From a virus (taxonomy: Duplodnaviria; Heunggongvirae; Uroviricota; Caudoviricetes), in IMG/VR virus record IMGVR_UViG_2687453623_000004: 64,000 bases of DNA, one strand, 5' to 3'. The notes beneath the pieces are model-generated. The model saw only the letters and a list, made by a program, of their open reading frames with translations, was not told the origin of the DNA and searched no databases. Each line of letters starts with the position of its first letter. The stretch's first letter is position 1. Of the stretch, positions 2,854-42,371 are shown in pieces. A program made the translations under genes and the position numbers.

Positions 2854-2862
2854 GGAGGCGTT

Positions 2863-3201: not shown

Positions 3202-3202
3202 C

Positions 3203-6302: not shown

Positions 6303-6304
6303 CG

Positions 6305-7101: not shown

Positions 7102-7176
7102 TACAGACAGCCGCCAGTAGCGGCTGTTCTGCGTTATCCCCTCACGTCTTTTCACCTTCCCCGGAGGTTAACCACT

Positions 7177-11012: not shown

Positions 11013-11224
11013 TGTTTCTTGAACATGTTACCCGTGACGGAGAGCGCTGGGATTCGCTGGCATGGCAGTACTACGGTGACCCGCTGGGCTATCCCCGGAT
11101 TATTGCCGCCAATCCGCACGTGGCCATCACGCCGGTGCTGCCCTCCGGGCTGTTGTTACTGATCCCGGTGATTGAGGCTGAAGAAGCCCGTACAGAAGAG
11201 GATATTGCCCCATGGCTGAGATAA
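11009..11224 (+). CDS. tail protein X-like (LysM-like)
   Basis: 71-aa ORF; pattern …DSLAWQYYGDP…AANPHV… parallels P2 gpX (…DAICVRYYGRT…AANPGL…) found at 47519..47722. Confidence 0.5.
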   Translation: MMFLEHVTRDGERWDSLAWQYYGDPLGYPRIIAANPHVAITPVLPSGLLLLIPVIEAEEARTEEDIAPWLR

Positions 11225-12366
11225 ACAGCACTGCGCAAGTCACATCAGCGTTAACCGGCGTCAGCGATGTGCTGACACCGGTGTTCACTCTGTGGTATCT
11301 GCAGAAAAACATCACCTCTGATATCGCGCCTTATGTCACCCGTGTGACCTGGAGCGATAACATCAAAAATGAGTCCGATACCATTGAGGTGGAGCTGGAC
11401 GACACCGATGGCCGCTGGCTGGATAAATGGTATCCGGGCAAGGGTGACACGCTGACGCTGAAAATGGGCTATCAGGGCGAGAAGCTGCTGTCCTGCGGTA
11501 CGTTCTCTATAGACGAGATCGAAGTGAGTTCGCCCGCTTCCGTTGTTTCTATCCGTGGGGTGGCCACCTCGGTTAACAGTGCCCTGCGGACTAAAACCAG
11601 TCGTGGTTTTGAGAACACCACGCTGGCAGCTGTTGCGGGGCGGATTGCCAGAAAGCACCGGCTGAAACTGGTGGGCAGCATTGAGTCCATCAGAATCGAC
11701 CGGGTGACCCAGTATGCTGAAACCGACGTGGGTTTTCTGCGCCGGCTGGCCAGCGAGTATGGTTATGCAGTGAAAGTGGTCAGTGACCAGCTGATTTTTT
11801 CTCATCTGGCCACACTGCGCAGTCAGGAGCCGGTCAGGCAGTTAAAACCGCAGGATGTGGCCCGCTTTTCCCTGCGTGACACCATCAACCGGGTCTATAA
11901 ATCTGCAAAGGTAAAACACCAGAAAAGCAGCAGTAAAAAACTGATCGTCTACGAAGCTGATGGTGGTACCCGTGAAAGCGACAAAAAGCTCAAAGGTGGT
12001 AAGGTTACCAGCGCTGACTCACTTAAAGTTAACAGCCGCGTCAGCGACCCGGACAGTGCCCGGATTAAAGCGGATTCAGCACTGGCCAGACATAACGAAT
12101 ACCAGCAGAACGGCTCCCTGACGCTGACGGGAACACCTCAACTGACAGCAGGCAACAAAATTGAACTGGTGAGTTTTGGGCAGTTATCCGGGCCATGGCT
12201 CATAACCACTGCCCGCCATGCGTTTGACCGTAACAGCGGCTACACCACAGAGCTGGAAGTGGCACGGGGGCCAGTCACAAGAGGGAAAAAACAAAAAACT
12301 CAGAAACTCACGGTTTATCACCCGGATGGCAGTACATCGACGGTGATTAAGGAGAAGAAAAAATGA
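11212..12366 (+). CDS. baseplate hub / late-control gpD-like tail protein (Mu gp44-like)
   Basis: 384-aa ORF with architecture similar to P2 gpD including a lysine-rich C-terminal region. Confidence 0.6.
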   Translation: MAEINSTAQVTSALTGVSDVLTPVFTLWYLQKNITSDIAPYVTRVTWSDNIKNESDTIEVELDDTDGRWLDKWYPGKGDTLTLKMGYQGEKLLSCGTFSIDEIEVSSPASVVSIRGVATSVNSALRTKTSRGFENTTLAAVAGRIARKHRLKLVGSIESIRIDRVTQYAETDVGFLRRLASEYGYAVKVVSDQLIFSHLATLRSQEPVRQLKPQDVARFSLRDTINRVYKSAKVKHQKSSSKKLIVYEADGGTRESDKKLKGGKVTSADSLKVNSRVSDPDSARIKADSALARHNEYQQNGSLTLTGTPQLTAGNKIELVSFGQLSGPWLITTARHAFDRNSGYTTELEVARGPVTRGKKQKTQKLTVYHPDGSTSTVIKEKKK

Positions 12367-12959
12367 CTGGTGTCACTCGTCAGGTCGGTACGGTCAGTGC
12401 CGTTGATGCCGACAGGGTTCAGGCCCGCGTTCGTCTGCCTGAATGCGATAACCTGCGCACAAACTGGCTTAACGTGCTGCAGCGCAATACCCAGGATAAC
12501 AAAGATTACTGGCTCCCTGACGTGGGGGAGCAGGTTGAGGTGCTGCTCGATGCCAACGGCGAGGATGGTGTTATTCTGGGCGCGGTGTATTCAGACGTCG
12601 ATAAACCACCGTTCAGTGACAAAAATATCCGGGGAACCCGGTTTGCTGATGGTGCAGAGTACAGCTACAACCGGAAGACGCACACTCTGATCATCCGGGG
12701 CGGCATTGAGCATATTGTCATTGAGTGTGGTGCTGATGTGGTATTGAAAACACAGAAAGCCACGATTGACGCACCGGAAACCGAACTTACCGGAGATCTG
12801 CGTGTCAGGGGTAAGCTGATTTACGAAGGAGGCATGGCGGGTTCTGGTGGTGAAGGTGTTACCGCGACCATCCATGGCAATATCGAGATTAAAGGGAATG
12901 TCCATGCCACGGGCAGTATGTTGTCTGATGGCGAAAACTCCAGCCACCACTCCCACTGA
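12363..12959 (+). CDS. baseplate spike protein (P2 gpV-like / Mu gp45-like)
   Basis: 198-aa ORF; compares with P2 V at 44162..44797 in size and spike-like C-terminal region; histidine-rich C-terminus. Confidence 0.6.
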   Translation: MTGVTRQVGTVSAVDADRVQARVRLPECDNLRTNWLNVLQRNTQDNKDYWLPDVGEQVEVLLDANGEDGVILGAVYSDVDKPPFSDKNIRGTRFADGAEYSYNRKTHTLIIRGGIEHIVIECGADVVLKTQKATIDAPETELTGDLRVRGKLIYEGGMAGSGGEGVTATIHGNIEIKGNVHATGSMLSDGENSSHHSH

Positions 12960-13013
12960 GCTTTTTAAACGCCTTTAATATCAGCGTTCCCGCACGGGGG
13001 CAATACTGCCCCC

Positions 13014-13361
13014 ATGAAAACAACCTCAGTATTCTGGCAACCAGCCCTGCAGGCTCCCGGCGAAATTGTCCGGGGGCTGGATGATATCCGGCAGGCGATT
13101 CAAATTATCCTGCGGACTCCCCGCGGCAGCGACCCGCATCGCCCGGAGTTCGGCAGCAATCTGCATCTTTATATCGACTGGCCTGTAGACCGGGCCATTC
13201 CGCATGTGGTGCGCGAATCCGTCGATGCCATCCGGCGCTGGGAGCCCCGCTGCCAGCTTATGTCAGTTAAACCCGCCGTCGACGGCGAACATCTTACGCT
13301 CCGGGTGAGCTGGAAAGGCTCAGACGGACAGACCCGGACTCAGGAGCTGCTATGGCGCTGA
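13014..13361 (+). CDS. baseplate wedge protein (gpW / gp25-like)
   Basis: 115-aa ORF, same length as P2 gpW at 43818..44165, conserved position before the J-like gene. Confidence 0.6.
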   Translation: MKTTSVFWQPALQAPGEIVRGLDDIRQAIQIILRTPRGSDPHRPEFGSNLHLYIDWPVDRAIPHVVRESVDAIRRWEPRCQLMSVKPAVDGEHLTLRVSWKGSDGQTRTQELLWR

Positions 13362-14455
13362 CAGAACCCGATTTTATTGAACGCGATGCCGACAAAATCA
13401 CGGCAGAAATGATTGCGAAGTATGAAGCGGATACCGGCAAAACGCTGTACCCGGCACAGGCAGAACGTCTGCTGATTGATCTGTGGGCCTATCGCGAAAT
13501 GCTGGTCAGGGTTGCGGTACAGGAGGCAGCAAAGCAGAATCTGGTCGCCTTTGCCCGTGAGCCGATGATTGATTACCTCGGTGAACTGGTCGGTGTATAC
13601 CGTCTTGCCGCGCAGCCTGCCACCACCACGCTCCAGTTCTCCGTAGATGAGGCACTGGCCATTGATGTGCTGATCCCGGCAGGCACCCGCGTCAGCGCTT
13701 CCGACAGCGTTATTTTTGCCACCGATACAGATGTGGTACTGAAGGCCGGATTGCTGCTGGTCAATGTCACGGCCACCTGTACCGAACCCGGTACCGCTGG
13801 TAACGGCTGGCAACCTGCGCAGGTCAGTCAGTTACTCGATGAGATTGATAACGTTAACCTGCTGGTGAGCAATCTGATGGCCAGTTCCGGCGGTTCAGAA
13901 CAGGAAGACGATGACAGGCTCCGGGAGCGTATCAGGCTGGCCCCGGAGTCATTCACCAATGCCGGAAGCCGTGGCGCATACCGCTTTCATGCCATGCAGG
14001 CCCATCCCAACATTGTCGATGTTGCTGTGCTTTCCCCGGTTCCCGGGACCGTAGATCTGTATCCGCTGCTCAGTACCGGTCTGCCGGACGGCGGTGTTCT
14101 CACGCTGGTAGAGAGTTTCTGCTCTGATGAGAAAGTCAGGCCACTCACTGATACAGTGCGGGCTAAAACACCAGTGAAGGTGGATTACACCATTGAAGCC
14201 AGGATTACGATCTATCGTGATCAGGATGCCAGGTCTGTAAAAGATGCCGCTAACAGCGCCATACAGAACTGGGTGGCATCACGTGCCGCCACGCTGGGGC
14301 GCGATATTGTCCCCAGCCAGATTATCAGTGCATTGTCCGTTTCCGGGGTGTACCAGGTTGAACTGGTGACACCGGCACTGCGGGTGGTGGCAGAAAACGA
14401 ATGGGCAAACTGTACGGCAATCACTCTTAACATGACTGGAGTGTCTGATGACTGA
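13352..14455 (+). CDS. baseplate J-like protein (Mu gp47-like)
   Basis: 367-aa ORF overlapping the W-like stop; corresponds to P2 gpJ (42905..43813) in gene order. Confidence 0.65.
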   Translation: MALTEPDFIERDADKITAEMIAKYEADTGKTLYPAQAERLLIDLWAYREMLVRVAVQEAAKQNLVAFAREPMIDYLGELVGVYRLAAQPATTTLQFSVDEALAIDVLIPAGTRVSASDSVIFATDTDVVLKAGLLLVNVTATCTEPGTAGNGWQPAQVSQLLDEIDNVNLLVSNLMASSGGSEQEDDDRLRERIRLAPESFTNAGSRGAYRFHAMQAHPNIVDVAVLSPVPGTVDLYPLLSTGLPDGGVLTLVESFCSDEKVRPLTDTVRAKTPVKVDYTIEARITIYRDQDARSVKDAANSAIQNWVASRAATLGRDIVPSQIISALSVSGVYQVELVTPALRVVAENEWANCTAITLNMTGVSDD

Positions 14456-15026
14456 GCCATTACAACTCCCGCCACCGCTTGAGGGTGATATCAGTCTCAG
14501 GACGCTGGGAAGACTGGCAGGACGGCTGGATAACATCGACCTGAGCGTACTGATGGTCTTTCTCGTCGATATCGTCGACAGTTCCGCGCTGCCATGGCTG
14601 GGCGAGCAGTTCTCACTGTCTGGCGATGGCTGGGAGCTGGCGGAATCGGACGATGTTCGCCGCATGCTTATAAAAGCAGCCATCGAACTGCACCGGTATA
14701 AAGGGACGCCGTGGTCAATCCGGGAAGTTATCCGCCGTTTTGGCTTTGGTGAAGTGGATCTGATTGAAGGCACAGGTCGTCTCAGTTACGACGGCAATCG
14801 CAGCTATAACGGACTGTTTGTTCATGGAGATGCAGCCGCCTGGGCAGTTTATCGCGTTATTCTGAAACAGCCCATTACTAACGATCAGGCCGCGATGCTG
14901 CGTCAGACGCTGGCTGCATTTGCACCGGCCCGCTGCCATCTGGCCAGCCTGGAGTATCAGTCTGTGGCCATTCGCTATAACAATACCGCCATCCATGATG
15001 GCAGTTATAACCACGGGAGCAGTTGA
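14448..15026 (+). CDS. tail protein I-like (Mu gp48-like)
   Basis: 192-aa ORF overlapping J-like stop and fibre start; position equals P2 gpI. Confidence 0.55.
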   Translation: MTEPLQLPPPLEGDISLRTLGRLAGRLDNIDLSVLMVFLVDIVDSSALPWLGEQFSLSGDGWELAESDDVRRMLIKAAIELHRYKGTPWSIREVIRRFGFGEVDLIEGTGRLSYDGNRSYNGLFVHGDAAAWAVYRVILKQPITNDQAAMLRQTLAAFAPARCHLASLEYQSVAIRYNNTAIHDGSYNHGSS

Positions 15027-16276
15027 TTATGGGAAACCTGAATGAAACAGAAAAGTGGGAAGAAAATATCTATCAACTGGAGACATCAGATCCGGTTCTG
15101 GGTGGTGCAGACGGGATATCAAATCGAGCCCCCCGGCAACTGGCAAACAGGACGAAATGGCTGAAGAAGAAAACGGAGGAAGCCGCACAGTCACTGGCTG
15201 AACACGTACGTTCCCGTAACCACCCGGACGCGACACTGACAGCTAAGGGGTTCACCCAACTGAGCAGTGCCACCAACAGCACCTCTGAAACGCTGGCCGC
15301 CACACCAAAAGCGGTCAAGGCTGCATACGACCTGGCAGCCGGCAAGGCGCCTGCCAGCCACACTCACCCGTGGAGTCAGATAACGGGAGTGCCTGCGGCT
15401 TCACTGACGGCAAAAGGCACCGTACAACTGAGCAGCGCCACGGACAGTCAATCAGAAACTGAGGCTGCCACGCCGAAGGCGGTCAAGGCTGCATACGACC
15501 TTGCAGCCGGCAAGGCGCCCGTCAGCCACACTCACCCGTGGAGTCAGATAACGGGAGTGCCTGCTGCCTCGCTGACGGCAAAAGGCACCGTACAATTGAG
15601 CAGTGCCATCAACAGCACGTCTGAAATACTGGCCGCCACACCGAAAGCGGTCAAGGCTGCATACGATCTGGCAAACGGAAAACAACCGGCAGATGCCACG
15701 CTCACTGCTCTGGCAGGACTTGCCACTGCAGCAGATCGGTTGCCTTATTTTACCGGAGCAGACCGCGCAGAGCTGGCAACCCTTACAGCTATTGGTCGCG
15801 CTATTATCGCTAAGGGCAGTATAAAAGATGTCCTCAATTACCTTGGTTTGGGGGAAGGCTCGGCGCTGCCCGTTGGTGTACCTGTTCCGTGGCCCACTGC
15901 CACACCGCCAGCAGGCTGGTTAAAGTGCGACGGGCGCGCCTTTACAAAAGAACAATATCCTGTTCTGGCCAGAGTCTACCCGACCCTCCGTCTTCCCGAT
16001 TTACGCGGTGAGTTTATCCGTGGATGGGACGACGGGCGAAAAGTGGATACAGGGCGCGATCTGCTTTCACGGCAGGATGGTACAAGTTTTTCTCATTACG
16101 CAGGTAATTTTGACATTGGGTCTGGTCATTCAATCAATAACTATGACCAAATCGTTGACAACCAACCTGGATTCTCCCGTTTTTCATTTGCAGGTCCTTC
16201 GCGAGGCGATGGGGTTAATTATGTGACCATTCGTCCCCGTAACATTGCGTTTAATTACATCGTAAGGGCGGCATAG
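15023..16276 (+). CDS. tail fibre protein (constant region fused to variable cassette 1)
   Basis: 417-aa ORF; N-terminal collar motif ([23 protein letters not shown]…PKAVKAAYD) shared with P2 H at 39747..42371; three tandem ~56-aa repeats; C-terminus ends [11 protein letters not shown]. Confidence 0.8.
   Translation: MIMGNLNETEKWEENIYQLETSDPVLGGADGISNRAPRQLANRTKWLKKKTEEAAQSLAEHVRSRNHPDATLTAKGFTQLSSATNSTSETLAATPKAVKAAYDLAAGKAPASHTHPWSQITGVPAASLTAKGTVQLSSATDSQSETEAATPKAVKAAYDLAAGKAPVSHTHPWSQITGVPAASLTAKGTVQLSSAINSTSEILAATPKAVKAAYDLANGKQPADATLTALAGLATAADRLPYFTGADRAELATLTAIGRAIIAKGSIKDVLNYLGLGEGSALPVGVPVPWPTATPPAGWLKCDGRAFTKEQYPVLARVYPTLRLPDLRGEFIRGWDDGRKVDTGRDLLSRQDGTSFSHYAGNFDIGSGHSINNYDQIVDNQPGFSRFSFAGPSRGDGVNYVTIRPRNIAFNYIVRAA
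15236..15700. repeat. three tandem ~168-bp coding repeats inside the tail fibre gene
   Basis: Protein block LTAKG(F/T)(T/V)QLSSA…[12 protein letters not shown](A/N)GK… occurs three times consecutively; DNA copies start near 15236, 15404 and 15572. Confidence 0.8.
15831..15856. other. putative invertase crossover site 1 (gix/hix-like), at the constant/variable junction of the fibre gene
   Basis: Sequence …caattaccTTGGTTTgggggaagg…; homology with the inverted copy at 17874-17899 begins exactly here; central ACCTTGGTTT resembles the AAACCAAGGT core of hix-type sites as I recall them. Confidence 0.4.
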
Positions 16277-16294
16277 AAACGTTGGTTTGGGGGA
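16269..16294. other. putative invertase crossover site 2 (direct orientation)
   Basis: …tagaaacgTTGGTTTgggggaagg… immediately after the fibre stop codon; near-reverse-complement of site 3. Confidence 0.35.
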
Positions 16295-16748
16295 AGGCTC
16301 TGCATTGCCTGTTGGTGTACCGGTTCCATGGCCCACCGCCACACCGCCAGCAGGCTGGTTACAGTGCAACGGAGCTACGTTCACCAAAGAACAATATCCT
16401 GTTCTGGTCAGAGTCTACCCGACCCTCCGTCTTCCCGATTTGCGCGGTGAGTTTATCCGTGGATGGGACGGTGGTCGCAAGGTTGATACCGGGCGTGCGC
16501 TACTTTCATTTCAGGAAGGGACTATCGTATCCGGTTTTGATGATAATGATACCGGAGATATCAGTTCGCTCGGCTCTACACAATACGGATTTGGTGACGC
16601 TTTAACCTCTAATCAACTGGGGGTCTTAAATGGCAAAAAGTGGATATTTGATGCATCCTCTAAAGGTGCACAAAGATATGACTGGTGGGCTTATGTATCA
16701 GCTCGCCCCCGCAATATCGCATTTAACTATATCGTGAGGGCGGCGTGA
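16287..16748 (+). CDS. silent alternative tail-fibre C-terminal cassette (variable cassette 2; no ATG, no RBS)
   Basis: 153-aa frame starting at TTG; encodes (L)GEGSALPVGVPVPWPTATPPAGW…[11 protein letters not shown], a paralogue of the C-terminal ~140 aa of the expressed fibre. Confidence 0.5.
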   Translation: MGEGSALPVGVPVPWPTATPPAGWLQCNGATFTKEQYPVLVRVYPTLRLPDLRGEFIRGWDGGRKVDTGRALLSFQEGTIVSGFDDNDTGDISSLGSTQYGFGDALTSNQLGVLNGKKWIFDASSKGAQRYDWWAYVSARPRNIAFNYIVRAA

Positions 16749-16754
16749 TACCGT

Positions 16755-17369
16755 TCAGCCGGCAAGCGCCAGTGGCGCTTCCGGCCAGCTGATTTCAGGT
16801 GCCTTGCTGATATCCAGTGCGTTCAGCTCGTCGATATAATCCAGCACGGCGTTCAGTTTTGCCGTTTCTTCTGGTTTCAGACTGCGACCAGCACGCAGTT
16901 TGAGGTTGATAAGATCGACGGACGCCATCGCCTGTTTCACCCGTTGCTGGCGTTGCTGTCTGGCAACCTCCAGTTCTGCGGCTCGCTGCCGTTCAGTATC
17001 GGTTACCCACGCCTCACCGTTCCAGGTATCCCATGGCGTGGCTGGCTGTTTTGTGGTGGTGTCCGCCGGGTAATCACCCGGTTGGGTAATCAGAACGGGG
17101 TTACCGTTCTCCGTGCTGTATACCGTCTCGCCGCGGTGATCAGGCACATGCTCCCACCCGTTCAGCGTGGCAGTCCGGCAAACCACGTAACCCGAAATTG
17201 CTTCCGGCGGTGCATCGGCGCACGAATGTGCCGGAGTACCCACCCCAAGGGCGAGATACTCCACAGAGGATGAGGTGTATTCCCGGGTTTCCTCGTCATA
17301 GTGATATACAGTGATATCGCCCGCTACAGTGGCGATACCGTTTTCATCCAGAACTGCAGTGTTACTCAT
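16755..17369 (-). CDS. tail fibre assembly protein (Tfa, Mu U'-like)
   Basis: 204-aa ORF; C-terminus …ELNALDISKAPEISWPEAPLALAG typical of Tfa chaperones; start overlaps the stop of inverted cassette 3. Confidence 0.75.
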   Translation of the reverse strand: MSNTAVLDENGIATVAGDITVYHYDEETREYTSSSVEYLALGVGTPAHSCADAPPEAISGYVVCRTATLNGWEHVPDHRGETVYSTENGNPVLITQPGDYPADTTTKQPATPWDTWNGEAWVTDTERQRAAELEVARQQRQQRVKQAMASVDLINLKLRAGRSLKPEETAKLNAVLDYIDELNALDISKAPEISWPEAPLALAG

Positions 17370-17851
17370 TAAACTGCCCTCACAATGTAATTAAGTGCAA
17401 TGCTACGGGGTCTGACAGTGATACCCTTCGCATACCCGCTTCTGATAGAGGTCAGAATAGTAGCCTGCATACCATTGTCTGACATTGCCACGACAGGATC
17501 GCTGAATGTTGTCCCGTCCGGCATTTTAAAGCTGCCCTCACGAAGGTCTGTAATGGAATCTTCATTGTTGAATCCCATGCCGACTATCCCCGAGGTTCCC
17601 GTAGTGTCCTGGTTATAATAATCCAGCATTGCTGTTCTTAACAGCGTTGCCCCTTGTGCGGACAGCAACTTACGTCCTGTATCAACTTTGCGCCCGTCGT
17701 CCCATCCACGGATAAACTCACCGCGTAAATCGGGAAGACGGAGGGTCGGGTAGACTCTGGCCAGAACAGGATATTGTTCTTTTGTAAAGGCGCGCCCGTC
17801 GCACTTTAACCAGCCTGCTGGCGGTGTGGCGGTGGGCCACGGAACAGGCAC
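17369..17851 (-). CDS. alternative tail-fibre C-terminal cassette 3 (inverted, promoterless; Mu Sv'-like)
   Basis: 160-aa frame on minus strand with GTG as first codon; first ~64 aa nearly identical to cassette 1; upstream frame closed by TGA just beyond the crossover site. Confidence 0.6.
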   Translation of the reverse strand: MPVPWPTATPPAGWLKCDGRAFTKEQYPVLARVYPTLRLPDLRGEFIRGWDDGRKVDTGRKLLSAQGATLLRTAMLDYYNQDTTGTSGIVGMGFNNEDSITDLREGSFKMPDGTTFSDPVVAMSDNGMQATILTSIRSGYAKGITVRPRSIALNYIVRAV

Positions 17852-17886
17852 ACCAACGGGTAGCGCCGAGCCTTCTCCTAAACCAA
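17693..17886. repeat. inverted repeat (~194 bp) matching 15844-16037
   Basis: Reverse complement of 17693-17886 is almost identical to 15844-16037; delimits an invertible segment of ~2.0 kb. Confidence 0.85.
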
Positions 17887-17899
17887 CGTTTATCTCTCA
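17874..17899. other. putative invertase crossover site 3 (inverted orientation)
   Basis: …ccttctcctAAACCAAcgtttatctc…; boundary of the inverted repeat, ~55 bp upstream of the invertase gene. Confidence 0.4.
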
Positions 17900-17952
17900 A
17901 ATCCTCCCCACATTATCTCAGTACTTTAACCACTCAAAAGGGAGTATTTTTA

Positions 17953-18525
17953 ATGCTGATTGGCTACATACGTGTGTCAACAAATGACCAAAACACAGAT
18001 TTGCAACGCAATGCATTAATGTGCGCAGGATGTGAACAGATTTTTGAGGACAAAATGAGCGGAACCAAGTCGGAACGACCAGGCCTGAAACGCGCTTTAA
18101 AGTGCCTTAAAAGAGGGGATACATTGGTGGTCTGGAAGCTGGATCGGTTGGGTAGAAGAATGAAACACCTCATTGCTCTCACAGAAGAGCTACGCGCAAA
18201 AGGTGTCAATTTTCGCAGTCTGACGGATTCAATCGATACCAGCACTCCGATGGGAAGGTTCTTTTTTCATATGATGGGTGCACTGGCAGAAATGGAGCGT
18301 GAACTGATAGTTGAGCGCACGCTGGCTGGACTGGCTGCTGCGCGAGCACAAGGAAGAGTTGGAGGACGTCGCCCGAAACTGACGAAGGAGCAGCATGAGC
18401 AGATCGCAAGATTGCTCCAGAAAGGGTATGACAGAAAGCGGCTGGCAATTATCTATGATATTGGACTGTCAACGATCTACCGCTATCACCCTGTTGGGAC
18501 TGTCATAACGCAACCTGAAATGTAA
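17953..18525 (+). CDS. serine DNA invertase, Gin/Pin/Hin family
   Basis: 190 aa from ATG 17953 with RBS aaagggag upstream; MLIGYIRVSTNDQNTDLQRNAL… and C-terminal HTH (…YDIGLSTIYRYHP) closely match recalled Gin/Pin sequences. Confidence 0.85.
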   Translation: MLIGYIRVSTNDQNTDLQRNALMCAGCEQIFEDKMSGTKSERPGLKRALKCLKRGDTLVVWKLDRLGRRMKHLIALTEELRAKGVNFRSLTDSIDTSTPMGRFFFHMMGALAEMERELIVERTLAGLAAARAQGRVGGRRPKLTKEQHEQIARLLQKGYDRKRLAIIYDIGLSTIYRYHPVGTVITQPEM

Positions 18526-25321: not shown

Positions 25322-27604
25322 ATGTCCGAGCTTAATGAAAAGTTAGCCACAGCCTGGGAAGGTTTTACCAAAGGTGACTGGCAGAATGAAGTAAACGTCC
25401 GTGACTTCATTCAGAAAAACTACACTCCGTACGAGGGTGACGAGTCCTTCCTGGCTGGCGCTACTGAAGCGACCACCACCCTGTGGGACAAAGTAATGGA
25501 AGGCGTTAAACTGGAAAACCGCACTCACGCGCCAGTTGACTTTGACACCGCTGTTGCTTCCACCATCACCTCTCACGACGCTGGTTACATCAACAAGCAG
25601 CTTGAGAAAATCGTTGGTCTGCAGACTGAAGCTCCGCTGAAACGTGCTCTTATCCCGTTCGGTGGTATCAAAATGATCGAAGGTTCCTGCAAAGCGTACA
25701 ACCGCGAACTGGACCCGATGATCAAAAAAATCTTCACTGAATACCGTAAAACTCACAACCAGGGCGTGTTCGACGTTTACACTCCGGACATCCTGCGTTG
25801 CCGTAAATCCGGTGTTCTGACCGGTCTGCCAGATGCTTATGGCCGTGGTCGTATCATCGGTGACTACCGTCGCGTTGCACTGTACGGTATCGACTACCTG
25901 ATGAAAGACAAACTTGCACAGTTCACCTCTCTGCAGGCTGATCTGGAAAACGGCGTAAACCTGGAACAGACTATCCGTCTGCGCGAAGAAATCGCTGAAC
26001 AGCACCGCGCTCTGGGTCAGATGAAAGAAATGGCTGCGAAATACGGCTACGACATCTCTGGTCCGGCTACTAACGCTCAGGAAGCTATCCAGTGGACTTA
26101 CTTCGGCTACCTGGCTGCTGTTAAGTCTCAGAACGGTGCTGCAATGTCCTTCGGTCGTACCTCCACCTTCCTGGATGTGTACATCGAACGTGACCTGAAA
26201 GCTGGCAAGATCACCGAACAAGAAGCGCAGGAAATGGTTGACCACCTGGTCATGAAACTGCGTATGGTTCGCTTCCTGCGTACTCCGGAATACGATGAAC
26301 TGTTCTCTGGCGACCCGATCTGGGCAACCGAATCTATCGGTGGTATGGGCCTCGACGGTCGTACCCTGGTTACCAAAAACAGCTTCCGTTTCCTGAACAC
26401 CCTGTACACCATGGGTCCGTCTCCGGAACCGAACATGACCATTCTGTGGTCTGAAAAACTGCCGCTGAACTTCAAGAAATTCGCCGCTAAAGTGTCCATC
26501 GACACCTCTTCTCTGCAGTATGAGAACGATGACCTGATGCGTCCGGACTTCAACAACGATGACTACGCTATTGCTTGCTGCGTAAGCCCGATGATCGTTG
26601 GTAAACAAATGCAGTTCTTCGGTGCGCGTGCAAACCTGGCGAAAACCATGCTGTACGCAATCAACGGTGGCGTTGACGAAAAACTGAAAATGCAGGTTGG
26701 TCCGAAATCTGAGCCGATCAAAGGCGATGTCCTGAACTATGATGAAGTGATGGAGCGCATGGATCACTTCATGGACTGGCTGGCTAAACAGTACATCACT
26801 GCACTGAACATCATCCACTACATGCACGACAAGTACAGCTACGAAGCCTCTCTGATGGCGCTGCACGACCGTGACGTTATCCGCACCATGGCGTGTGGTA
26901 TCGCTGGTCTGTCCGTTGCTGCTGACTCCCTGTCTGCAATCAAATATGCGAAAGTTAAACCGATTCGTGATGAAGACGGTCTGGCTATCGACTTCGAAAT
27001 CGAAGGCGAATACCCGCAGTTTGGTAACAACGATCCGCGTGTAGATGACCTGGCTGTTGACCTGGTAGAACGTTTCATGAAGAAAATTCAGAAACTGCAC
27101 ACCTACCGTGACGCTATCCCGACTCAGTCTGTTCTGACCATCACTTCTAACGTTGTGTATGGTAAGAAAACTGGTAACACCCCAGACGGTCGTCGTGCTG
27201 GCGCGCCGTTCGGACCGGGTGCTAACCCGATGCACGGTCGTGACCAGAAAGGTGCTGTAGCGTCTCTGACTTCCGTTGCTAAACTGCCGTTTGCTTACGC
27301 TAAAGATGGTATCTCCTACACCTTCTCTATCGTTCCGAACGCACTGGGTAAAGACGACGAAGTTCGTAAGACCAACCTGGCTGGTCTGATGGATGGTTAC
27401 TTCCACCACGAAGCATCCATCGAAGGTGGTCAGCACCTGAACGTTAACGTGATGAACCGTGAAATGCTGCTCGACGCGATGGAAAACCCGGAAAAATATC
27501 CGCAGCTGACCATCCGTGTATCTGGCTACGCAGTACGTTTCAACTCGCTGACTAAAGAACAGCAGCAGGACGTTATTACTCGTACCTTCACTCAATCTAT
27601 GTAA
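25322..27604 (+). CDS. pflB: pyruvate formate-lyase 1
   Basis: 760-aa [64 protein letters not shown]… to the glycyl-radical C-terminus; RBS aaggtagg upstream. Confidence 0.97.
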
Positions 27605-29880: not shown

Positions 29881-32327
29881 TTAACCGTCATGCATCATGC
29901 TGGCACGGGCGCGCGCTCGTTTATCCCGCTCGTATTTTTCGAGCGCATCCTGTAACTGGCGGTCGAGCTGTGTCCCCGGCGCAGTACCACCCGTCAGGCT
30001 GATGTGATATTCGTTTTTACTCTGGTCTACATAAGAGCGGCCAGCCGGTGCCGTGACCGGCTGATAAGCCTGATAACCTGCATAAGAGCTGGTCGCCGGA
30101 ATATAACCACCGCTGCCATACGTGGCGGCTTGAGTTCTGGCGGCGGTCTGGTCAAGTGTGTCTGACTCTTTGTTGATAACACCGAGTTTTTCCAGTACCC
30201 AGTCAATACCACTGCGCAGTTTGTTGAACGCATTAAGCGGCAGCATCAGCGCGTCAGCCAGTGCCTGCCCGAACATGACGCCCGTGTCACGGCAACGGTT
30301 CAGGGTGTCCTGGGTGGCTTTGACCGGGGCAATCAGGTTTTTAAACCACTGCCACGCGGCCTGTAACTTTTCACCCAGCCAGTCAAACACCGGTTTAAGT
30401 GGCGTGAACAGTTCCCCCACCGGCGTAAATGCCGCTTTCAGCCCTTCCACCACACCGCCAAAGAATGCGCTGACAGGCTCCCAGTATTTACGGATAAGCA
30501 ACGCCCCGGCGACAATGGCGGCCACCACGGCCACAACCGGCCAGCTAATCGCCCCGATGGCGGTCATAACAGCACTGCCAACCGTCGTGAAGATTGCCCC
30601 CATTGCGCCTGCTGCCGCGATGATGGCATTGATGCCGGTGATAACCGGCCAGGCTACGAGGCCAATGGCACCGATGACACCAATCAGTGCCAGTGCACCA
30701 CCGACAATGATGCCGATGGTTGACGCCAGTGATTTGTTTTTCTGGATCCAGCCGTCGAGTTTTAACACATACTTTGTGGCCGTCTGCGTGAGATTACGCA
30801 GTGCGCCTTCCTGCTGGTCAAACAGGTCAGTCCCCACCGCCTCATAAGCGGACTGAAACTCCTTAAAGTCACCGCCGAGGTTATCCTGCATGATTTTAAC
30901 CAGCTCTTCCGTTTTACCGTCCGAGGCTTTCAGCGTGGCGGTCAGCTTATCCAGTTTTCCGCTTGCTGCCGCTGCCAGTAAAACGTTCGCTGATTTCAGG
31001 GCTTCCTCACCAAAAATGGTTTTAAGGTATTCCCCCTTCTGAGACGTTCCCAGCTTGTGTTTATCAAAGCTGGCCTGAATCTCTTTCAGAATGGTGAACA
31101 ACGGACGCATATTTCCCTTTTTGTCCGAGGTTTTAACGCCAAGCTCTTTGAGTGCATCCCATGCTTTTCCAGTCGGTGCCTGTAATCGGGTGACAACGGC
31201 ACTACTACCCGTACCCGCCATTGACCCCCTGATGTTATTGTCATGCAGCACACCTGTCATGGCCGCTGCCTGCTCAAGACTTACGCCTGCCGTCCTCGCA
31301 ACCGGCCCGAGGTAAGTCAGTGCATCACTGAGTCCCTGAAAATCAGCGCCGACTTATTCATCGTTGCAGACAACACGTCGCCCACATGGCTGACATCATC
31401 ATTTGACAGTTGAAAGGATGCCTTAGTCCCCAGCAACAGTTGCGCGTTTTCTTCCATCGACCGCTGATTCGCCAGTGCCATATTCAGCGTGACCGGCGTT
31501 GCCGCCTGAATAGCCGCAGCATCTCCACCCGCTTTCGCAATGATAATCTGCGCACCGGCCGCATCATCCGCCGAGGCGGCTGTGTTGTCACCGAGCTGGC
31601 GCGCCTGTTTGCGGAGTGCGGTCATTTCGGCGGAGTCTTTTGCCACTCCGAGCACGGCCTGCAATTCTGAGTTTTTCTGCGCAAACTCATAACCGGGCAT
31701 CAGCAGCTTAACTCCGGCCATCGTTCCCGCAGCAGCAATCCCCGCACCGGCAGCGCCCACTGAGGCCATATTTCCGGCCAGTTCCTTTCCTGCCTGATAA
31801 CGCTGTTTGACTGCGTTAAGTTTTGCCTGTTGTACACTGACACGCGCCAGCGCGTCACGCTGACGGTTAAGCTGTGCGGTGGTTTCACTGATACGGTTTT
31901 TCAGTCCCTGCTCATCATGTGCAAGATTGCGGGTATTAATTCCCACAGCGGCCAGTTCTCGCTGCTGGCGTTTAACGGAATCTGTCAGGCGGTTATATTT
32001 CGCCTGTAAGTCCTCCGCCGCACGCTTTGCGGATTCCAGCACTTTCGCCTGAGCACGGGTCGGACGTTCGGTGTTTTTAAACTGTGTGGCAAGGGCTTCG
32101 GCTTCCTGTCGAGCCTTTTCAAATGCATGACCAGTCACGGCGAGCTGTGCACTGGTCTTGCGGAATCCCTCAATACGGGATGCGTGACCGTTCAGCTCGC
32201 GCAGTGATTTTTGTGTTTCCCGGATATCCCCCGACAGCGACTTGCTCGCTGTACGGATGGATTTAAACGGGCGGGATGCCTGGTCAACAGCCCTGAGCAA
32301 TACCTGTAATTTTACATTGTTACTCAT
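29881..32327 (-). pseudogene. T: tail tape measure gene T, interrupted by a frameshift (two ORFs: 31317..32327 and 29881..31353)
   Basis: N-terminal 336-aa ORF ends with TGA at 31317-31319 while the C-terminal frame is open from 31353 down; the two frames overlap by ~35 nt; combined length ~810 aa fits P2 gpT. Confidence 0.6.
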
Positions 32328-32747
32328 TCGTGTTTCCGCTTCGCCGGAGCGCCTTTTCGCGCCATGTGATGAGTTCGGTCAGGCTCATGGGATACAGTTC
32401 TGATGGCGGCCAGTGAAATATCACTGCCACATCCGCCATCAGGTCATCGACCGAGAGATTTTTCGGAAACGTTACTGCACCGAGTTCGGCGACAAAAAAC
32501 CGACCACCTTACCGGCCAGCGCCACAAGGTCAGGCAGCTCCAGCGCGGCGACCTCCTGCTCAGTCAGCATCGGTGCCGTCATGCGCGGCAGCACTTTAAT
32601 CAGTGCATCGACTTCGGAGTTCGCGACCGCAGCCAGACTGACACCGCGCAGCGTCCCGGCATTGGGTTTCATCAGCGTGACCTGTTCGATAACCTGCTCA
32701 CCACGCTTGACCGGATTGTCCAGGGTAATCACATTTTCTTTGTTCAT
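32320..32747 (-). other. E': E+E' -1 programmed frameshift product (slippery T-TTT-TTG at 32493-32499, minus strand)
   Basis: In the E frame the codons GGT TTT TTG contain the heptamer TTTTTTG; the -1 frame then stays open for ~55 codons (VAELGAVTFPKNLSVDDLMADVAVIFHWPPSELYPMSLTELITWREKALRRSGNTNE) to TAA at 32320-32322, overlapping the T start. Confidence 0.65.
32472..32747 (-). CDS. E: tail assembly chaperone E
   Basis: 91-aa ORF MNKENVITLDNPVKRGEQVIEQVTLMKPNAGTLRGVSLAAVANSEVDALIKVLPRMTAPMLTEQEVAALELPDLVALAGKVVGFLSPNSVQ. Confidence 0.85.
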   Translation of the reverse strand: MNKENVITLDNPVKRGEQVIEQVTLMKPNAGTLRGVSLAAVANSEVDALIKVLPRMTAPMLTEQEVAALELPDLVALAGKVVGFLSPNSVQ

Positions 32748-34836: not shown

Positions 34837-35313
34837 CTATATGTTACTGGGATTATTAAAAGGGATAATACTGGCCAATCCGTCATCAACATCAAGACCA
34901 TAGGTAACCGCTATTTCTGCCAGAGAGTTACCACACTTTTGTCGCAGTTTAAAAAGGGCTCGCTCAAGTATGGATATTTGAACAGGATGATCAAGTTGGA
35001 TAAAGTGAGGGGAGCCAACGCTGTCACAGAATTCTTGGCATGCTTTTCTCATTTTCCTTAATTGTTTTGCTAAATGTGAATCGCTCGGCAAACCTTGTAG
35101 GACTTTAGTCAATTCAGATCTAATGTTGATAACACTCGAAGTGCAATGACTAGCACCCTCCATGTCGACAGGATTGAAAAGAACGCGCTTGTCCTCAAGA
35201 AAAATGACGATCTTCTTCGCTTCGTCAGTTTCTATTATTGGAGCATTCCACTGAATCCCGAATATGGGACAGCTAAGGCCAGTAATATTTTTATAGATTT
35301 GTTCAAATTTCAA
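34837..35313 (-). CDS. hypothetical protein, accessory cargo at the P2 Z/fun position (no family recognised)
   Basis: 158-aa ORF MKFEQIYKNITGLSCPIFGIQWNAPIIETDEAKKIVIFLEDKRVLFNPVDMEGASHCTSS… in a visibly AT-rich block unlike the surrounding phage genes; own terminator downstream. Confidence 0.55.
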   Translation of the reverse strand: MKFEQIYKNITGLSCPIFGIQWNAPIIETDEAKKIVIFLEDKRVLFNPVDMEGASHCTSSVINIRSELTKVLQGLPSDSHLAKQLRKMRKACQEFCDSVGSPHFIQLDHPVQISILERALFKLRQKCGNSLAEIAVTYGLDVDDGLASIIPFNNPSNI

Positions 35314-35571
35314 AAGTCACTCCTTGGATGGACTCTGAGCATATAAAACGCCATACTGATAAACGGACTCGGTTCAAGTAATCTGTTAGATAGCATAACT
35401 CGGAACCACTGTAAAAATAGTTGTTAACATACCTAAAAGTGACAGCGGAGGCAAGATTCCCTCAGCCGGAGCGATAAATTAGGCATAAGTTATACACACA
35501 TTAGTAATAATCACTAAAGATATTCTAATTTTTTATGCCGACTTAATATGATTTCCCGTCAATCAGGTTAG

Positions 35572-35753: not shown

Positions 35754-36131
35754 ATGAAATCAATTTTAGAGGTTTTTACTCAAGGAAATACTAAAGAAAA
35801 ACTGGCTGTTATCGCTGATCTCACAACCATTGCGGGAATATCGATAGCAACTATTATTGCTGGTTTGTTAACCCTAGTTGCAAAAACAGATAAACTAGAT
35901 GTTGGAAATCTGTTTGGAGTTGTCATAATATCTCTGCTCGGATTGGCTGGTGTTTGCTGTTTTATGGCCCTATTTATTTGGGTTATAACCCAAATGTCTA
36001 AACCATGGGGAACACCTCGGGGGATTCAGTCCTTAGTTAAGTGTGCTATTTCCCTTATCTTTATCTGTATTTTTTTGCTGGCTGTCTTTACATTTTATGA
36101 GGTTATTTCTTCGATGAGAATACTCTATTGA
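35754..36131 (+). CDS. small multi-pass membrane protein, accessory cargo (no family recognised)
   Basis: 125-aa ORF with RBS ggtgg upstream; three or four hydrophobic helices (…IAGISIATIIAGLLTLVA…, …GVVIISLLGLAGVCCFMALFIWVI…, …AISLIFICIFLLAVFTFY…). Confidence 0.55.
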   Translation: MKSILEVFTQGNTKEKLAVIADLTTIAGISIATIIAGLLTLVAKTDKLDVGNLFGVVIISLLGLAGVCCFMALFIWVITQMSKPWGTPRGIQSLVKCAISLIFICIFLLAVFTFYEVISSMRILY

Positions 36132-36580: not shown

Positions 36581-37105
36581 TTATTGCGGCATTTCTGGCC
36601 ATTCTATATCCGGAGCATTTTCCGGCTGAACGCGATTCAGTAGCACACGGTATTTTTTCCAGTGTGTCAGGCTTAACTTTTCTTCCTCGGTAGCCATATC
36701 TAAATCGACAGCATCCTGCAGAGTGCCAATAATTTCACCGGCATATGCAATCTGCTCTTTCTTCTGAGACTCCGCCGCTCTGACAAGTGCATCATGCTCT
36801 GCATTCTCATCATTCACCCACGCATTTCCGTTCCATTTCTGATAATCCCCATCCGGGGAAATGGCTGTCACGTCTGGAGGTAATGCACCAAGTTCAGAAA
36901 TATAAATGGCTGCTCCCGTTTTCGTTTCGTAGACAGTCTTTCCGCGATGATCTTCCATCAACTCCCATTTCATTTCATCTGCATTGAAAACGGCTGCATA
37001 ACCAGCAGGAATATCAGGTGGTGCAATATCTGTACTGTTTGCAGGCAGACCTGTATGCGGCGGAATATATGCATCACTTTCGCCAATAAACTCATTGGTT
37101 GCGTA
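36581..37105 (-). pseudogene. G: tail fibre assembly gene G, 3' fragment (175 codons, no start codon), separated from its 5' end by an IS element
   Basis: Frame open from TAA at 37106-37108 down to the stop at 36581; encodes …[57 protein letters not shown]…DIEWPEMPQ, the conserved Tfa body. Confidence 0.8.
37093..37099. repeat. 7-bp target-site duplication (CATTGGT), copy flanking the lower-coordinate IS end
   Basis: cattggt immediately precedes the IS terminus tgcgtatt… at 37100; identical heptamer follows the other terminus at 39681-39687. Confidence 0.7.
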
Positions 37106-37184
37106 TTACCGTGAAGGAGATCGGTGAGTAACATCGATGGAGATCGGTTCGTGTCACTTTCACAGAACCGTTTTTAAATTACCT

Positions 37185-37934
37185 TCACTGATCTCCTTCG
37201 GTCAACGGAGATTGTATTTTCCGCATTGATTCTCCTTTAAGTTCGATCTTGATACTGCCATGAACCAGTCGATCTAGGATGGCATCCGCATGTGTGGAGT
37301 CTCCGATCATTTTGTACCAGTTTTCCACCGGCAACTGGCTCACTACGATGATTGAGCCTCGTTGGTACATCAGATCCACTATTTCCAGCAGGTCGCTACG
37401 CTGTTCTGATGAGAGAGGTTCCAGCCCCCAGTCATCCAGAAGCAGCAGATCGCTATTATTCAGCCTGGTCAAAAGTTTGCTGTATCTTCCATCAGCATGC
37501 CCCTGATAGCACTGTTCCATCAGCGCTTTAAGGCGATAATAGTAGACCTTGTATCCCTGTCGGCAGGCATTATGACCAAGTGCACATGCCAGGAACGTTT
37601 TACCGCTGCCGGTGGCCCCGGTCAGTAAAATATTTTGTTTCAGGGTTAACCAGTTTCCCTGACTGAGTGAACGGATGAGGGCCCTGTCCAGCCCTCTATT
37701 GTTACGATAATCCAGCTTTGATAACTCAGCATTAAGTCTGAACCGTGCATGTTTGATCAGACGCTCTGCCTTCCTGTTTTCACGGCAGGTTAGTTCTTCT
37801 GCTGTCAGTAATGACAGGCGTTCTTCGAAGCCCAGCTCCTGGTATGTGCCCGGTTGAGCAAGTTGCTTTTTAAGCGCATCACGGAAGCCGGTGAGTTTAA
37901 GTGCGGTCAGTTGTTCGTAAAGATGATTCATCAT
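37185..37934 (-). CDS. istB: IS21-family transposition helper ATPase IstB
   Basis: 249-aa ORF with Walker A motif (LLTGATGSGKTFLACALG) and Walker B-like LLLLDDWG. Confidence 0.9.
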   Translation of the reverse strand: MMNHLYEQLTALKLTGFRDALKKQLAQPGTYQELGFEERLSLLTAEELTCRENRKAERLIKHARFRLNAELSKLDYRNNRGLDRALIRSLSQGNWLTLKQNILLTGATGSGKTFLACALGHNACRQGYKVYYYRLKALMEQCYQGHADGRYSKLLTRLNNSDLLLLDDWGLEPLSSEQRSDLLEIVDLMYQRGSIIVVSQLPVENWYKMIGDSTHADAILDRLVHGSIKIELKGESMRKIQSPLTEGDQ

Positions 37935-37945
37935 TGGATCCCGTA

Positions 37946-39487
37946 TCAGTGGTAATACTCACTGCCGCGTACGTTTTCGTGTTCCATCGTGGATAACAGA
38001 TCTGGTTTTGGATCCTGAACAGGTTGTTTATCCAGACCTTTTTCCAGGATCGATTTAATACCTGACAGACGCCATACCTTTGTTTTCAGAGCTCTTGCAC
38101 ATGCTGCATTAAGTCTGGCTTTACTGTATTTTTTATGAAGGTTCAGGAGTCCAAGGCAGAAGCGATAGCTTTGTTCCGGATGTGGACGAGAGTTCAGTAT
38201 ATGAAGCACATAACTATGAGTTTCACTGCCTATGTGCCCCGCCCATTCCAGAAGACGCTCTGGCGTCCAGGTGGCATGCTGTCGATGAGCTTCAGGCATG
38301 TGCTCGTTGCGGGTACTGTAGCCATAAGTACGCTTGCGCGGGTGCACAGCAACCTCCTGCCCCTGATTGAAGAGTCTTACCAGTTCTCCGGAGATCCATG
38401 CTTCCAGTTGCTGGCCTAACAGCGAACATGGAACCGAGTAGTAATGTTTGTCGATTTCCACGTGGTAATCGGCATGAACTCTGACTTTCTTCACCAGGGT
38501 GTAACTGTAACTGGCTTCAGGAAGAGGCTTCAGTGCGGGTTTATCAAGCTGGATGAAGAGTTCTGCACGTGAATAACCCAACTTCTGCATTATTTTGTTA
38601 TTCAGTCTTTCCAGCAACTCCCGAATGCGCTGATTAAGCGATGCAAGGCTGTAGAAGATCTCATGCCTGATTCGGGCCATGATCCAGCGTTCAACAACCT
38701 GAACGCCAACTTCAGCTTTGGCTTTATCTTTCGGTTTACGTGGCCGCGCAGGCAAAACTGCGACATTATAATGCTCAAGCATCTGCTGGTAGGTAGGGTT
38801 AACGTCAGGATCATACTTACATGCCCTGGATGTGGCGCTTTTCAGATTGTCCGGAACAACAAGTTCAGGAACGCCACCCAACCACTGGAAGCAGCGAACA
38901 TGACTCATCACCCAGTCTTCAAGCTGCTGAGACCAGGTGGCCTCTGCCCATGTGTAACTTGATGCCCCGAGAACAGCTACGATGACCTGAGCAGTTCTTA
39001 TTTCTCCGGTCTCAGGGTCGGTAACGCCAACGGTAGGTCCACAGTAATCAACGAAAAGTTTTTCGCCAGCTTTATGTACCTGACGCATTGATGGTGAAGT
39101 GGTTTTGAGCCATTCACGGTACATCCGGCAGTAATGGTTATAGCTGTAAAAACCGCCTGGATTACGCTCACAGTATTCTTCCCAGAGTAGCTGCAGCGTC
39201 ACGCATTTATTACGCAGTTCCCGGTGTACTGTAGCCCAGTCAGGCAGAGAGTGCTTCTTCATCTTAACCTGGGTCTGAAGGAACGCATGTTTTAGTTTTG
39301 TATCATCCCATCCTGTAGGTAAGGGCCACTGCTTTATGCCAAGTTGAGCCGCCCGATTAGCATATCTGGATACAACGGAAGGGGAGATTGCAAGACTACG
39401 ACCAATTTGTCGATGGCTGAGTCCAACACCGTATTTAAGCCTAAGAATTTCTTTAAGTTTTCTCATAGAAATTGGAACTGTTGGCAT
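37946..39487 (-). CDS. istA: IS21-family transposase IstA
   Basis: 513-aa ORF with N-terminal HTH (…LSHRQIGRSLAISPSVVSRY…) and DDE-type catalytic core; followed 12 nt later by istB. Confidence 0.9.
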   Translation of the reverse strand: MPTVPISMRKLKEILRLKYGVGLSHRQIGRSLAISPSVVSRYANRAAQLGIKQWPLPTGWDDTKLKHAFLQTQVKMKKHSLPDWATVHRELRNKCVTLQLLWEEYCERNPGGFYSYNHYCRMYREWLKTTSPSMRQVHKAGEKLFVDYCGPTVGVTDPETGEIRTAQVIVAVLGASSYTWAEATWSQQLEDWVMSHVRCFQWLGGVPELVVPDNLKSATSRACKYDPDVNPTYQQMLEHYNVAVLPARPRKPKDKAKAEVGVQVVERWIMARIRHEIFYSLASLNQRIRELLERLNNKIMQKLGYSRAELFIQLDKPALKPLPEASYSYTLVKKVRVHADYHVEIDKHYYSVPCSLLGQQLEAWISGELVRLFNQGQEVAVHPRKRTYGYSTRNEHMPEAHRQHATWTPERLLEWAGHIGSETHSYVLHILNSRPHPEQSYRFCLGLLNLHKKYSKARLNAACARALKTKVWRLSGIKSILEKGLDKQPVQDPKPDLLSTMEHENVRGSEYYH

Positions 39488-39680
39488 AGGTATCCTTTAC
39501 CGGAATGGCAAAAGATACAGATCAACACACCTGTGAAGTTCCAATAACATTGATGGAGATCACTGAATAACAAAATGAGTCAAAAGTGATCTCCATCGAT
39601 GTTATTCAGCGATCTGTTCAAATGTTATTACCCGATCTCGATGGAAGTTATTGAGTGATCTCCTTTCATGAAAATACGCA

Positions 39681-39747
39681 CATTGGTTCCATCAAGTAAA
39701 TTGAAAACGCGGATAGTTTGTGCTTCTGCACTCATTCTGAAAGCCAT
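39681..39747 (-). pseudogene. G: tail fibre assembly gene G, 5' fragment (first 22 codons)
   Basis: ATG at 39747-39745 overlapping the H stop; encodes [22 protein letters not shown], then runs into the IS terminus; joining it to the 3' fragment across the IS restores …[15 protein letters not shown]…. Confidence 0.75.
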
Positions 39748-42371
39748 TATGCAAGCCTCACAATATAGTTAAATGCGATGTTTTTGACGGTGTTTTCTGT
39801 ATTACCTGTAGCATTAACGGTAATAGAGTGCCCGTGTGAGCCAATAGCAACCGTGTGTGAATGTGCACCAATACCAACCGTATGATTATGTGCACCAATA
39901 TCTACCGTGTGGGCATGATTCCCGGCAGCTCCTGATGTGCCATTAAACGATGGGTTGTCAAAGCCTGTTTTACCGGTTTCACCATTAGTATTGGCATTCC
40001 CTCTGTAAATGGTATGTGTATGGTTACCAGTGGTATTAGTGGTTTTTGTTCCGTAGTTAAACGTACTGACTGTCTTCGTCCCGTAATCAAACGAACTGGT
40101 TGTTTTCGTTCCCAAATCCGTATTTGACGCACTGGCACTGTGAGTATGCGATTTAATCCCGTCCTGTTCCTGTGACAATACGGCACGCCCACTGGCGGGT
40201 TTGCCCTTGATTGTCCAGCCGCGCATATCAGGAATAACACCAGAAGGATAGGCTATAGCCAGTTTCGGATATGCTGCCTTATCAAACGTCTGCCCCTGCA
40301 TGATTGCATAGCCTGCAGGTGGTGTATCTGATGGCCACGGCAGCGGAACACCAGGCGGAAACGCTTCAATATTTGCCGAGCCGTCAAATTTTACGCCGTT
40401 AATTGTCCTTGCCGTTTTCAGCTTTGTTGCTGTAGCCGCATTGCCGGACAGTTCACCAGAAAGGCCTGCACTGAATGTCTGTTTTGCCTCCCATGTCTGG
40501 GCTTCGTCGATAATTGGTAGCCGACGAATATTGAAGCTACGCTCCCCAGGATTGCCATATAAGCGGACTGTAAAAAAACGATAGTTGGTTTTGTTTGAAG
40601 TGCTGCGCCATACCTGCATTGAACGGGCGACACCTCCGCCTTCACTGGGGCCAACAGTGATATTTATCAGGTTAGTATCAATGACGCCCCATTCCATCCC
40701 ATCGGGAATATTGGTCATATCTGAAAGCCTGACAGTTATCATGCTGCCCGGTATAAAGTCGTAGGTCTGCCAGTCCAGACTGGATAACCTGTCGGTAACA
40801 CCGCCGACACCTAATTTAGTGAGTAATGATTTTGAGTTGTATACTTCCGCCCATTCCCCCCAGTCAGTTTCACCGCTGGCGCGGGTTCGCTGAAATGTCC
40901 GGTTTTTATAGGCATCCGTTGCTGAAACAGTCGTATATGTCTGGATATACGATTCAATATCACAACGTTTTTTCACCTCAACTATTGAGCCAACAGCAAG
41001 ATCTTTAGAGTCGGTGACAGGTGCATTTGTGGCCTGTTTCGTGACGCTATAAATACCAGGCTTTAAAAGGTCATCAAGATCCCCTGAATAAGTCCATCCC
41101 GTGGACTGATACCCAACAGCAATCCAGTCCTCCCATTGTGGATTTTCTGCATCCCATGAGGCTGTCAGTCCGCGAATGTACATAGTCCCACTACGGGTGG
41201 TATAACGTTGCATCCTCCCATACAGACCGCCTTCAAAGACTTCCAGAATACCCTGTCCAAAACTCCCTTCCTCCGGGAAATGACGGTCAAATGAGGCTAT
41301 TGATGTACTGCTATTGCGCCATATTCCCAGGTGTTCCGCACCACCTAAAGAATTCAGGTCAATTGACGTGCTTAATGGGCGAGTCCCGCTTGTAATAGCT
41401 CTCCATGCACTCCATACAGGACTGACAGGGTTCCATTCTGCATCAAGCATCCGAATGTAAATATTACCGGTTCGGGTGGTGTAGCGTTGTGTGCAGTGAA
41501 AGCGACCAGCATTGAATACTTCCAGAACCCCATTGCCTTTATCTTCAGGGTAACCAGACTCTGGTTTTGCAGTGGATTGTGACGGACATGACCACGTTCC
41601 AAGATATTTTTCTTCTGGGCCATAGGAATCAAGATTGTCAGTGGTTGGAATCATTCCATTGTGTTTCATAAACGTCAGGCTGGTAACGCCAATATTGTCC
41701 AGAAAAGCGCCCTTATCTGGAATATCGCCACCGTTCTGGTCTTTCTGCAGACGTTTCTCAGCATTGTCATAGGCTGCTTTTACTGCCTTTGGCGTTGCTG
41801 CCAGCTTTTCACTGGTGCTGTTTGTTGCACTGCTTAACTGAGTAAAACCTTTTTCTGTCAGCGTGGCGTCAGGATGGCGGCGGGACTGCTCATGCTCTGC
41901 GATTTTGTCATCGACGTAATCCTGCGTCGCCATCACTGTGCTGGCATCAATACTCAGCTCAACAGACGCCACGTTACTGACAATAATGACCATGCGGCAG
42001 GTCTGCGCACGCCCGGAGCCTTCAGCCAGTTCAGGCTTATAGCTTTCTGCCATGTTAGCGACCGCAATCAGTGTTCCGGCATCATCATACAGACCAAGTT
42101 CACGCATCCAGAAGCCGCCCACTTCTGGCGGTACAACCAGTTCAGCCACGATATAGTTTTTATTCTTGTTATCCACGCTGACTTTATTCAGAGCGTGACG
42201 CCAGACCTCATGCACCAGTTTCGTCTGACCGGCATCCGGCACCGGCAATTTGCCATTACCGTCACCCACGGCCATTGCAGACAGGTTTACTTTTTTCCCG
42301 CCGGGGACAGTGGCGGCTGCCAGCTTTGCGGCTCCGGCAGTAGTGATAACGGTTTTAAATTTCGTGCTCAT
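39747..42371 (-). CDS. H: tail fibre protein H
   Basis: 874-aa [66 protein letters not shown]… (P2 H-like N-terminus) with His-rich C-terminal repeats ending [11 protein letters not shown]. Confidence 0.9.

Follow-up and report, generated by a model that had tools for sequence, protein, structure and literature searches.

Organization of the locus

The window, by which we mean the whole stretch of 64,000 nucleotides that was analysed, proved 100% identical to the chromosome of E. coli CCUG 73778 (NZ_CP041337.1) over the 24.4 kb tested, with window position 1 corresponding to position 1,884,841 of that record. It contains a P2-type prophage located between pflB (window 25322-27604) and pflA on the E. 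coli ST131 chromosome. The prophage (window 27605-63000) lies between the genes for pyruvate formate-lyase and its activase, which are thereby approximately 35 kb apart, and, T and G excepted, its annotation is that of a complete prophage extending from ogr to int. The features discussed below are collected in Table 1.

Table 1. Features of the prophage, with positions given in window coordinates.
Feature	Position	Strand	Basis
Gene T, tail tape-measure protein; pseudogene of P2-type prophage	29881..32327	minus	homology, gene order, PGAP
N-terminal frame of T, 336 aa, ATG 32327 to TGA 31319-31317	31317..32327	minus	ORF list, translation
C-terminal frame of T, 490 codons plus stop at 29881	29881..31353	minus	ORF list, frame reading
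Lesion, single G at 31347 where intact T genes have GG	31346..31348	minus	alignment to Wphi, P2_4C9, 11W
U_UUC AGG in mutant frame, slippery tetramer then rare Arg codon	31335..31341	minus	sequence
TTTTTTG near end of gene E, intact, unrelated to the T lesion	32493..32499	minus	sequence
DUF6650 protein, between G and FI	34837-35313	minus	
Hypothetical protein, between G and FI	35754-36131	plus	
ISEc12 (IS21 family), 2580 bp, in tail-fibre assembly gene G	37101..39680	minus	annotation, sequence
PDC-S31 match (DUF2971), intact	55193-55924	minus	PADLOC candidate defence family, E = 2e-47
PDC-M18B match, intact	56042-56518	minus	PADLOC candidate defence family, E = 3e-19
PDC-M18A match, intact	56550-57692	minus	PADLOC candidate defence family, E = 9e-41

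Gene T, whose counterpart in Wphi is annotated as the "tail length determinator" and lies between E/E+E' and U and D, was readily recognized in the window. It aligns over its full length (100% coverage) with the T genes of Peduovirus P24C9, 10W, and 11W at 97.5% DNA identity and with Wphi T at 96.9%, carries the PF10145 domain, and sits between E/E' and U-D in the FETUD operon, the order FI-FII-E-E'-T-U-D being the same as in Wphi (according to the annotations of Wphi and CCUG 73778). It corresponds, in other words, in both identity and operon order to gpT of P2 and Wphi (Peduovirus; PF10145, PhageMin_Tail), from which it differs in the absence of one G at codon 328, leaving a 336-aa fragment followed by a long untranslated C-terminal frame. 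Its span of 2447 nt (815 codons plus 2 bases) compares with 2448 nt in intact T genes, a length found in all of the listed phage T genes except that of 11W, itself disrupted by another lesion. The uninterrupted ORF of approximately 815 codons that characterizes gene T is missing from the window, and because the 1-nt deletion brings the ORF to a stop after codon 336, the gene is filed here as a pseudogene of the gpT family.

The product of the N-terminal frame reads in frame through N324, K, S, and A327 and ends with nine out-of-frame residues (LIFRDSVMH) before the stop. The frame boundaries reported in the earlier note are exact: the N-terminal ORF stops at TGA 31317-31319, and the C-terminal frame, closed upstream by TAA at 31356-31354, opens no earlier than 31353 and continues to 29881. 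Both frames are open at 31353-31320, an overlap of 34 nt where about 35 nt had been estimated, and the A4 run described beside it is present, although at 31339-31342 on the plus strand instead of 31338-31341. The earliest start codon of the C-terminal frame is the ATG at 31260, 93 nt downstream, which would give a hypothetical product of 459 aa; with this as the first start and half of PF10145 missing from what it would encode, an independent C-terminal product is considered unlikely.

A one-base deletion inside a conserved domain

Aligned globally over its whole length, T shows a single gap relative to Wphi T, at alignment position 980, along with 75 substitutions. The alignment to Wphi, P2_4C9, and 11W likewise shows one gap, at GGCGGC, where the intact genes have GTCGGCGGCTGATTTTCAG and the window has GTCGGC-GCTGATTTTCAG; viewed over shorter spans, GTCGGCGGCTGAT of intact T genes corresponds to GTCGGC-GCTGAT in the window, and GGCGGCTG to GGCGCTG. 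The deletion, at position 1,916,187 of the CCUG 73778 chromosome, lies outside the T4/A4 run, four bases upstream, and an indel within that run can be ruled out, given that the alignment places the gap in the GG doublet at 31347. The earlier note had proposed, as the alternative to a sequencing error, that a single-base indel splits and inactivates a P2-type T gene and that alignment to intact T genes would locate it. Both points are borne out by the missing G in the doublet, which is the only gap relative to Wphi T, by the cut through PF10145, and by the PGAP label of "frameshifted". When the G is re-inserted, the expected single frame is recovered with a length of 815 aa, rather than the approximately 810 aa anticipated, and 798 of its 815 residues (97.9%) are identical to Wphi gpT.

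The PF10145 domain is divided between the two frames at profile positions 90 and 91. Positions 1-90 correspond to residues 239-327 of the N-terminal frame and positions 91-201 to residues 3-115 of the C-terminal frame, the two halves scoring 49.1 and 91.3 bits, respectively, against a gathering threshold of 33.2. The break therefore falls inside a conserved domain, away from a domain boundary. The gene thus has the makeup of a frameshift pseudogene, with one indel, a premature stop, and an alignable remainder, and its lesion is reproducible in independent sequences.

Distribution of the mutant allele

When 461 bp with the lesion at their centre served as the query, 17 complete E. coli chromosome records matched at 100% identity and shared the deletion. 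All of the other records listed either span 462 bp or begin one base into the query, and thus keep the G. The 17 carriers come from several countries and projects and comprise SaT040 (USA), CCUG 73778 and REF1 (Sweden), LS4 (isolated from a yak; two records), CU568-3, S21EC, S22EC, USVAST219, AH21H052, and seven records of the OZ series. Among IMG/VR contigs, the mutant junction is present in four, two of which are from metagenome datasets, and the intact junction in 47. In each of the eight carrier loci fetched, T is identical to that of the window at all 2447 positions, so that no variation exists among these carriers; the closest intact T allele has 98.1% identity to the window T.

SaT040 serves as a reference for ST131 clade B (PMC13645330). 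In this record, as well as in CCUG 73778, REF1, and OZ038879, PGAP labels the gene "phage tail tape measure protein, frameshifted", with FMA85_RS09495 (CCUG 73778) and AVR72_RS28530 (SaT040) being examples of the corresponding RefSeq pseudogenes. The annotated pseudogene and the window feature are identical in sequence and coordinates, with no difference between them; the T split is thus a feature already annotated in public records. The prophage itself goes unmentioned in the CCUG 73778 paper and in the ST131 clade A paper.

Disruption of T is also seen elsewhere. Among 33 full-length T genes that do not carry the window deletion, three are disrupted and the other 30 are single 2448-nt ORFs; T pseudogenes are therefore not rare. 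The lesions in these P2-type genes differ from that of the window: in L003 (phage 11W, OM475429.1) T is split by a 1-nt insertion, L035 likewise has an insertion of 1 nt, and L038 has lost approximately 21 nt and is frameshifted as well.

Insertion sequences and the order of decay

The insertion sequence in G that had been noticed earlier is ISEc12, with istA at 37946-39487 and istB at 37185-37934, and it is flanked by an 8-bp direct repeat (CATTGGTT) at 37093-37100 and 39681-39688 that represents its target duplication. ISEc12 occurs in four of 16 near-identical prophage copies, and SaT040 and most of the other carriers of the T deletion are without it. REF1 has an additional ISCro1 inside H, and in OZ038879, whose G is intact, the H/G junction holds an ISCro1 into which an IS4 is nested. 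Because the deletion is common to all carriers and the insertions vary from one carrier to another, the T lesion is older than the IS insertions, including that of ISEc12 in the window. These later hits in and beside H and G fit relaxed selection on the tail genes and ongoing neutral decay. The T lesion shared by the carriers and the subsequent IS hits in the tail-fibre region support the earlier description of the prophage as "defective", but not as "domesticated".

Three further observations concern variation among near-identical copies. The 24.4-kb prophage segment of LS4 (yak, China) is 100% identical to that of CCUG 73778, a Swedish blood isolate from a hospital outbreak, with ISEc12 included. 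Gene H (39747-42371, minus) is intact in the window and contains a G6 run at 40851-40856, whereas SaT040 has G5 and an H annotated as "frameshifted"; the shorter run of SaT040 marks either a second site of variation or an error in reading a homopolymer. Finally, the cargo region that separates G from FI contains a GT/AC dinucleotide repeat (window ~35485-35495), of which SaT040 and IMG/VR contig L009 have one unit more than the window.

Interpretation and alternative readings

Taken together, the evidence makes it very probable that the T gene of a P2-type prophage in E. coli ST131 lost one G, that the resulting frameshift is non-programmed, inherited, and inactivating, and that the IS insertions came later. 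The G was lost from the GG doublet at window 31347 (minus) only once, on one T haplotype, and the allele has since been inherited vertically. Ribosomes would enter the wrong frame at codon 328 and stop at codon 337, producing a 336-aa fragment that lacks the C-terminal 60% of the protein, half of PF10145, and the hydrophobic segment. The tape measure T of P2-type phages is required for tail building. Because the tape measure is needed for the tail and the fragment is incomplete, carriers would be expected to form no tails and hence no infectious particles. Different IS elements landed in or beside H and G in different descendants after the loss of T, with ISEc12 landing in G in the lineage represented by the window.

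This reading is of little consequence beyond annotation, in that it describes an ST131 prophage that would be unable to build tails and a split that is real and no assembly artefact. The T allele could mark the ST131 sub-lineage that has the prophage between pflB and pflA. The only wider interest lies in the gene as a possible natural test case for the leaky -1 suppression of a single-base deletion.

The alternative with the best prospects, although a highly unlikely one, is that the pseudogene is leaky, with a few ribosomes slipping by -1 at U_UUC while AGG occupies the A site, such that IS-free carriers occasionally build tails. Correction of a one-base deletion requires a -1 slip, and U_UUC AGG is the only plausible site at which slippage by -1 in the P site could bring the ribosome back into the T frame. 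With its rare Arg codon, the site matches a configuration described for P-site slippage, in which an X_XXN tetramer precedes a hungry codon (PMC10861913), and single-base deletions in E. coli test genes showed 1-10% aggregate suppression by -1 slippage (Springstein et al. 2024, PMC10861913). The situation at T resembles those cases in having a 1-bp deletion, a potential -1 rescue, and an X_XXN tetramer with a rare Arg codon. A slip would restore the frame inside the 34-nt stretch that is open in both frames, and the predicted product is a full-length gpT with only two changes, A328L and D329I, recognizable by the mixed-frame peptide SALIFQGLSDALTYLGPVAR.

It differs from the published cases, however, in that the opportunity for rescue extends over approximately 12 codons here as opposed to rescue windows of 56-77 codons (PMC10861913), and slippage at T is a prediction from the sequence. 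Other features also argue against leakiness. No X_XXY_YYZ heptamer is present in the overlap (TCG GCG CTG ATT TTC AGG GAC TCA GTG ATG CAC TGA), and no stimulatory RNA structure was found in the 90 nt downstream, which fold at -30.6 kcal/mol (z = 0.40), with 129 of 200 shuffled sequences folding at least as well. The two-frame arrangement is unconserved, being confined to one T haplotype, and the subsequent insertions in H and G point to tail genes that are no longer under selection. Even with slippage at T, moreover, the phage would stay inactive in the window, where G is interrupted as well. Inactivation of T may still be leaky rather than absolute, and U_UUC AGG is itself a chance by-product of the deletion. 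It is correspondingly very unlikely, though conceivable, that the deletion is an incomplete knock-out and that a slipped gpT (A328L, D329I) lets IS-free carriers such as SaT040 release rare infectious particles; if this were true, T would be a natural "pseudogene" kept partly alive by error frameshifting.

An error of sequencing or assembly, in which case the true genome would have GG and an intact T, had been left as an alternative in the earlier note and is now extremely improbable. Single-base indels are the commonest long-read error, and the one-G difference in the G6 run of H in SaT040, within the same prophage, could be an error of that kind. The T deletion, however, is identical in the four IMG/VR contigs and in the 17 complete chromosome records, whose origins include the USA, Sweden, and China as well as further projects. 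The CCUG 73778 assembly combined Nanopore reads with other sequence data (PMC7355845), and a study employing single-molecule real-time sequencing cites SaT040. The site, furthermore, is a GG doublet and not a homopolymer, and has neither a Dam nor a Dcm motif (GATC, CCWGG). Since T is identical in many independent assemblies and the site is neither a homopolymer nor a methylation motif, we conclude that the T deletion represents a single, real, and vertically inherited event on one T haplotype.

The idea of an evolved programmed frameshift, or of a tape measure that functions in two pieces, has next to no probability: programmed -1 frameshifting is known in the adjoining E/E+E' of P2-type phages, but T is a single 2448-nt ORF in 30 of the 33 other full-length genes, the split runs through the conserved PF10145, the first C-terminal start codon lies 93 nt downstream of the point at which that frame opens, and both the heptamer and the stimulatory structure are lacking. 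A programmed -1 frameshift in T is thus ruled out for want of heptamer, structure, and conservation, as the earlier note had supposed in treating the split as non-programmed. The TTTTTTG near the end of gene E, just upstream of T, is the known site of programmed -1 frameshifting in the P2 E/E+E' tail chaperone pair, the slippery heptamer reportedly being that of Christie et al. 2002. In Wphi, E+E' is annotated with a "-1 translational frameshift". The T split is similar to the -1 frameshifts of tail chaperones (lambda G/GT; P2 E/E+E') in being a frameshift in a tail-gene operon, next to the E/E+E' site (32499-32493); it differs from them in being unconserved, in having no heptamer or structure, and in affecting the tape-measure gene rather than a chaperone gene.

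Cargo genes and the neighbouring prophage

Three candidate defence cargo genes, matching PDC-S31, PDC-M18B, and PDC-M18A, sit between the portal gene and replication gene A, the position of the "old/tin" hotspot of P2. As these genes are intact, the candidate defence cargo may offer the host a reason to keep a crippled prophage. The cargo between G and FI, at the Z/fun position of P2, consists of the DUF6650 protein and a hypothetical protein, neither of which had a PADLOC match.

The window also includes a second annotated prophage (1-18525), represented by its late region with contractile-tail genes and its own intact tape-measure gene (~7177-10128). This second prophage is inserted beside aroA, where SaT040 has ycaL, and its fragmented tail-fibre genes and recombinase-family gene (17953-18525) may together make up a tail-fibre segment capable of inversion.
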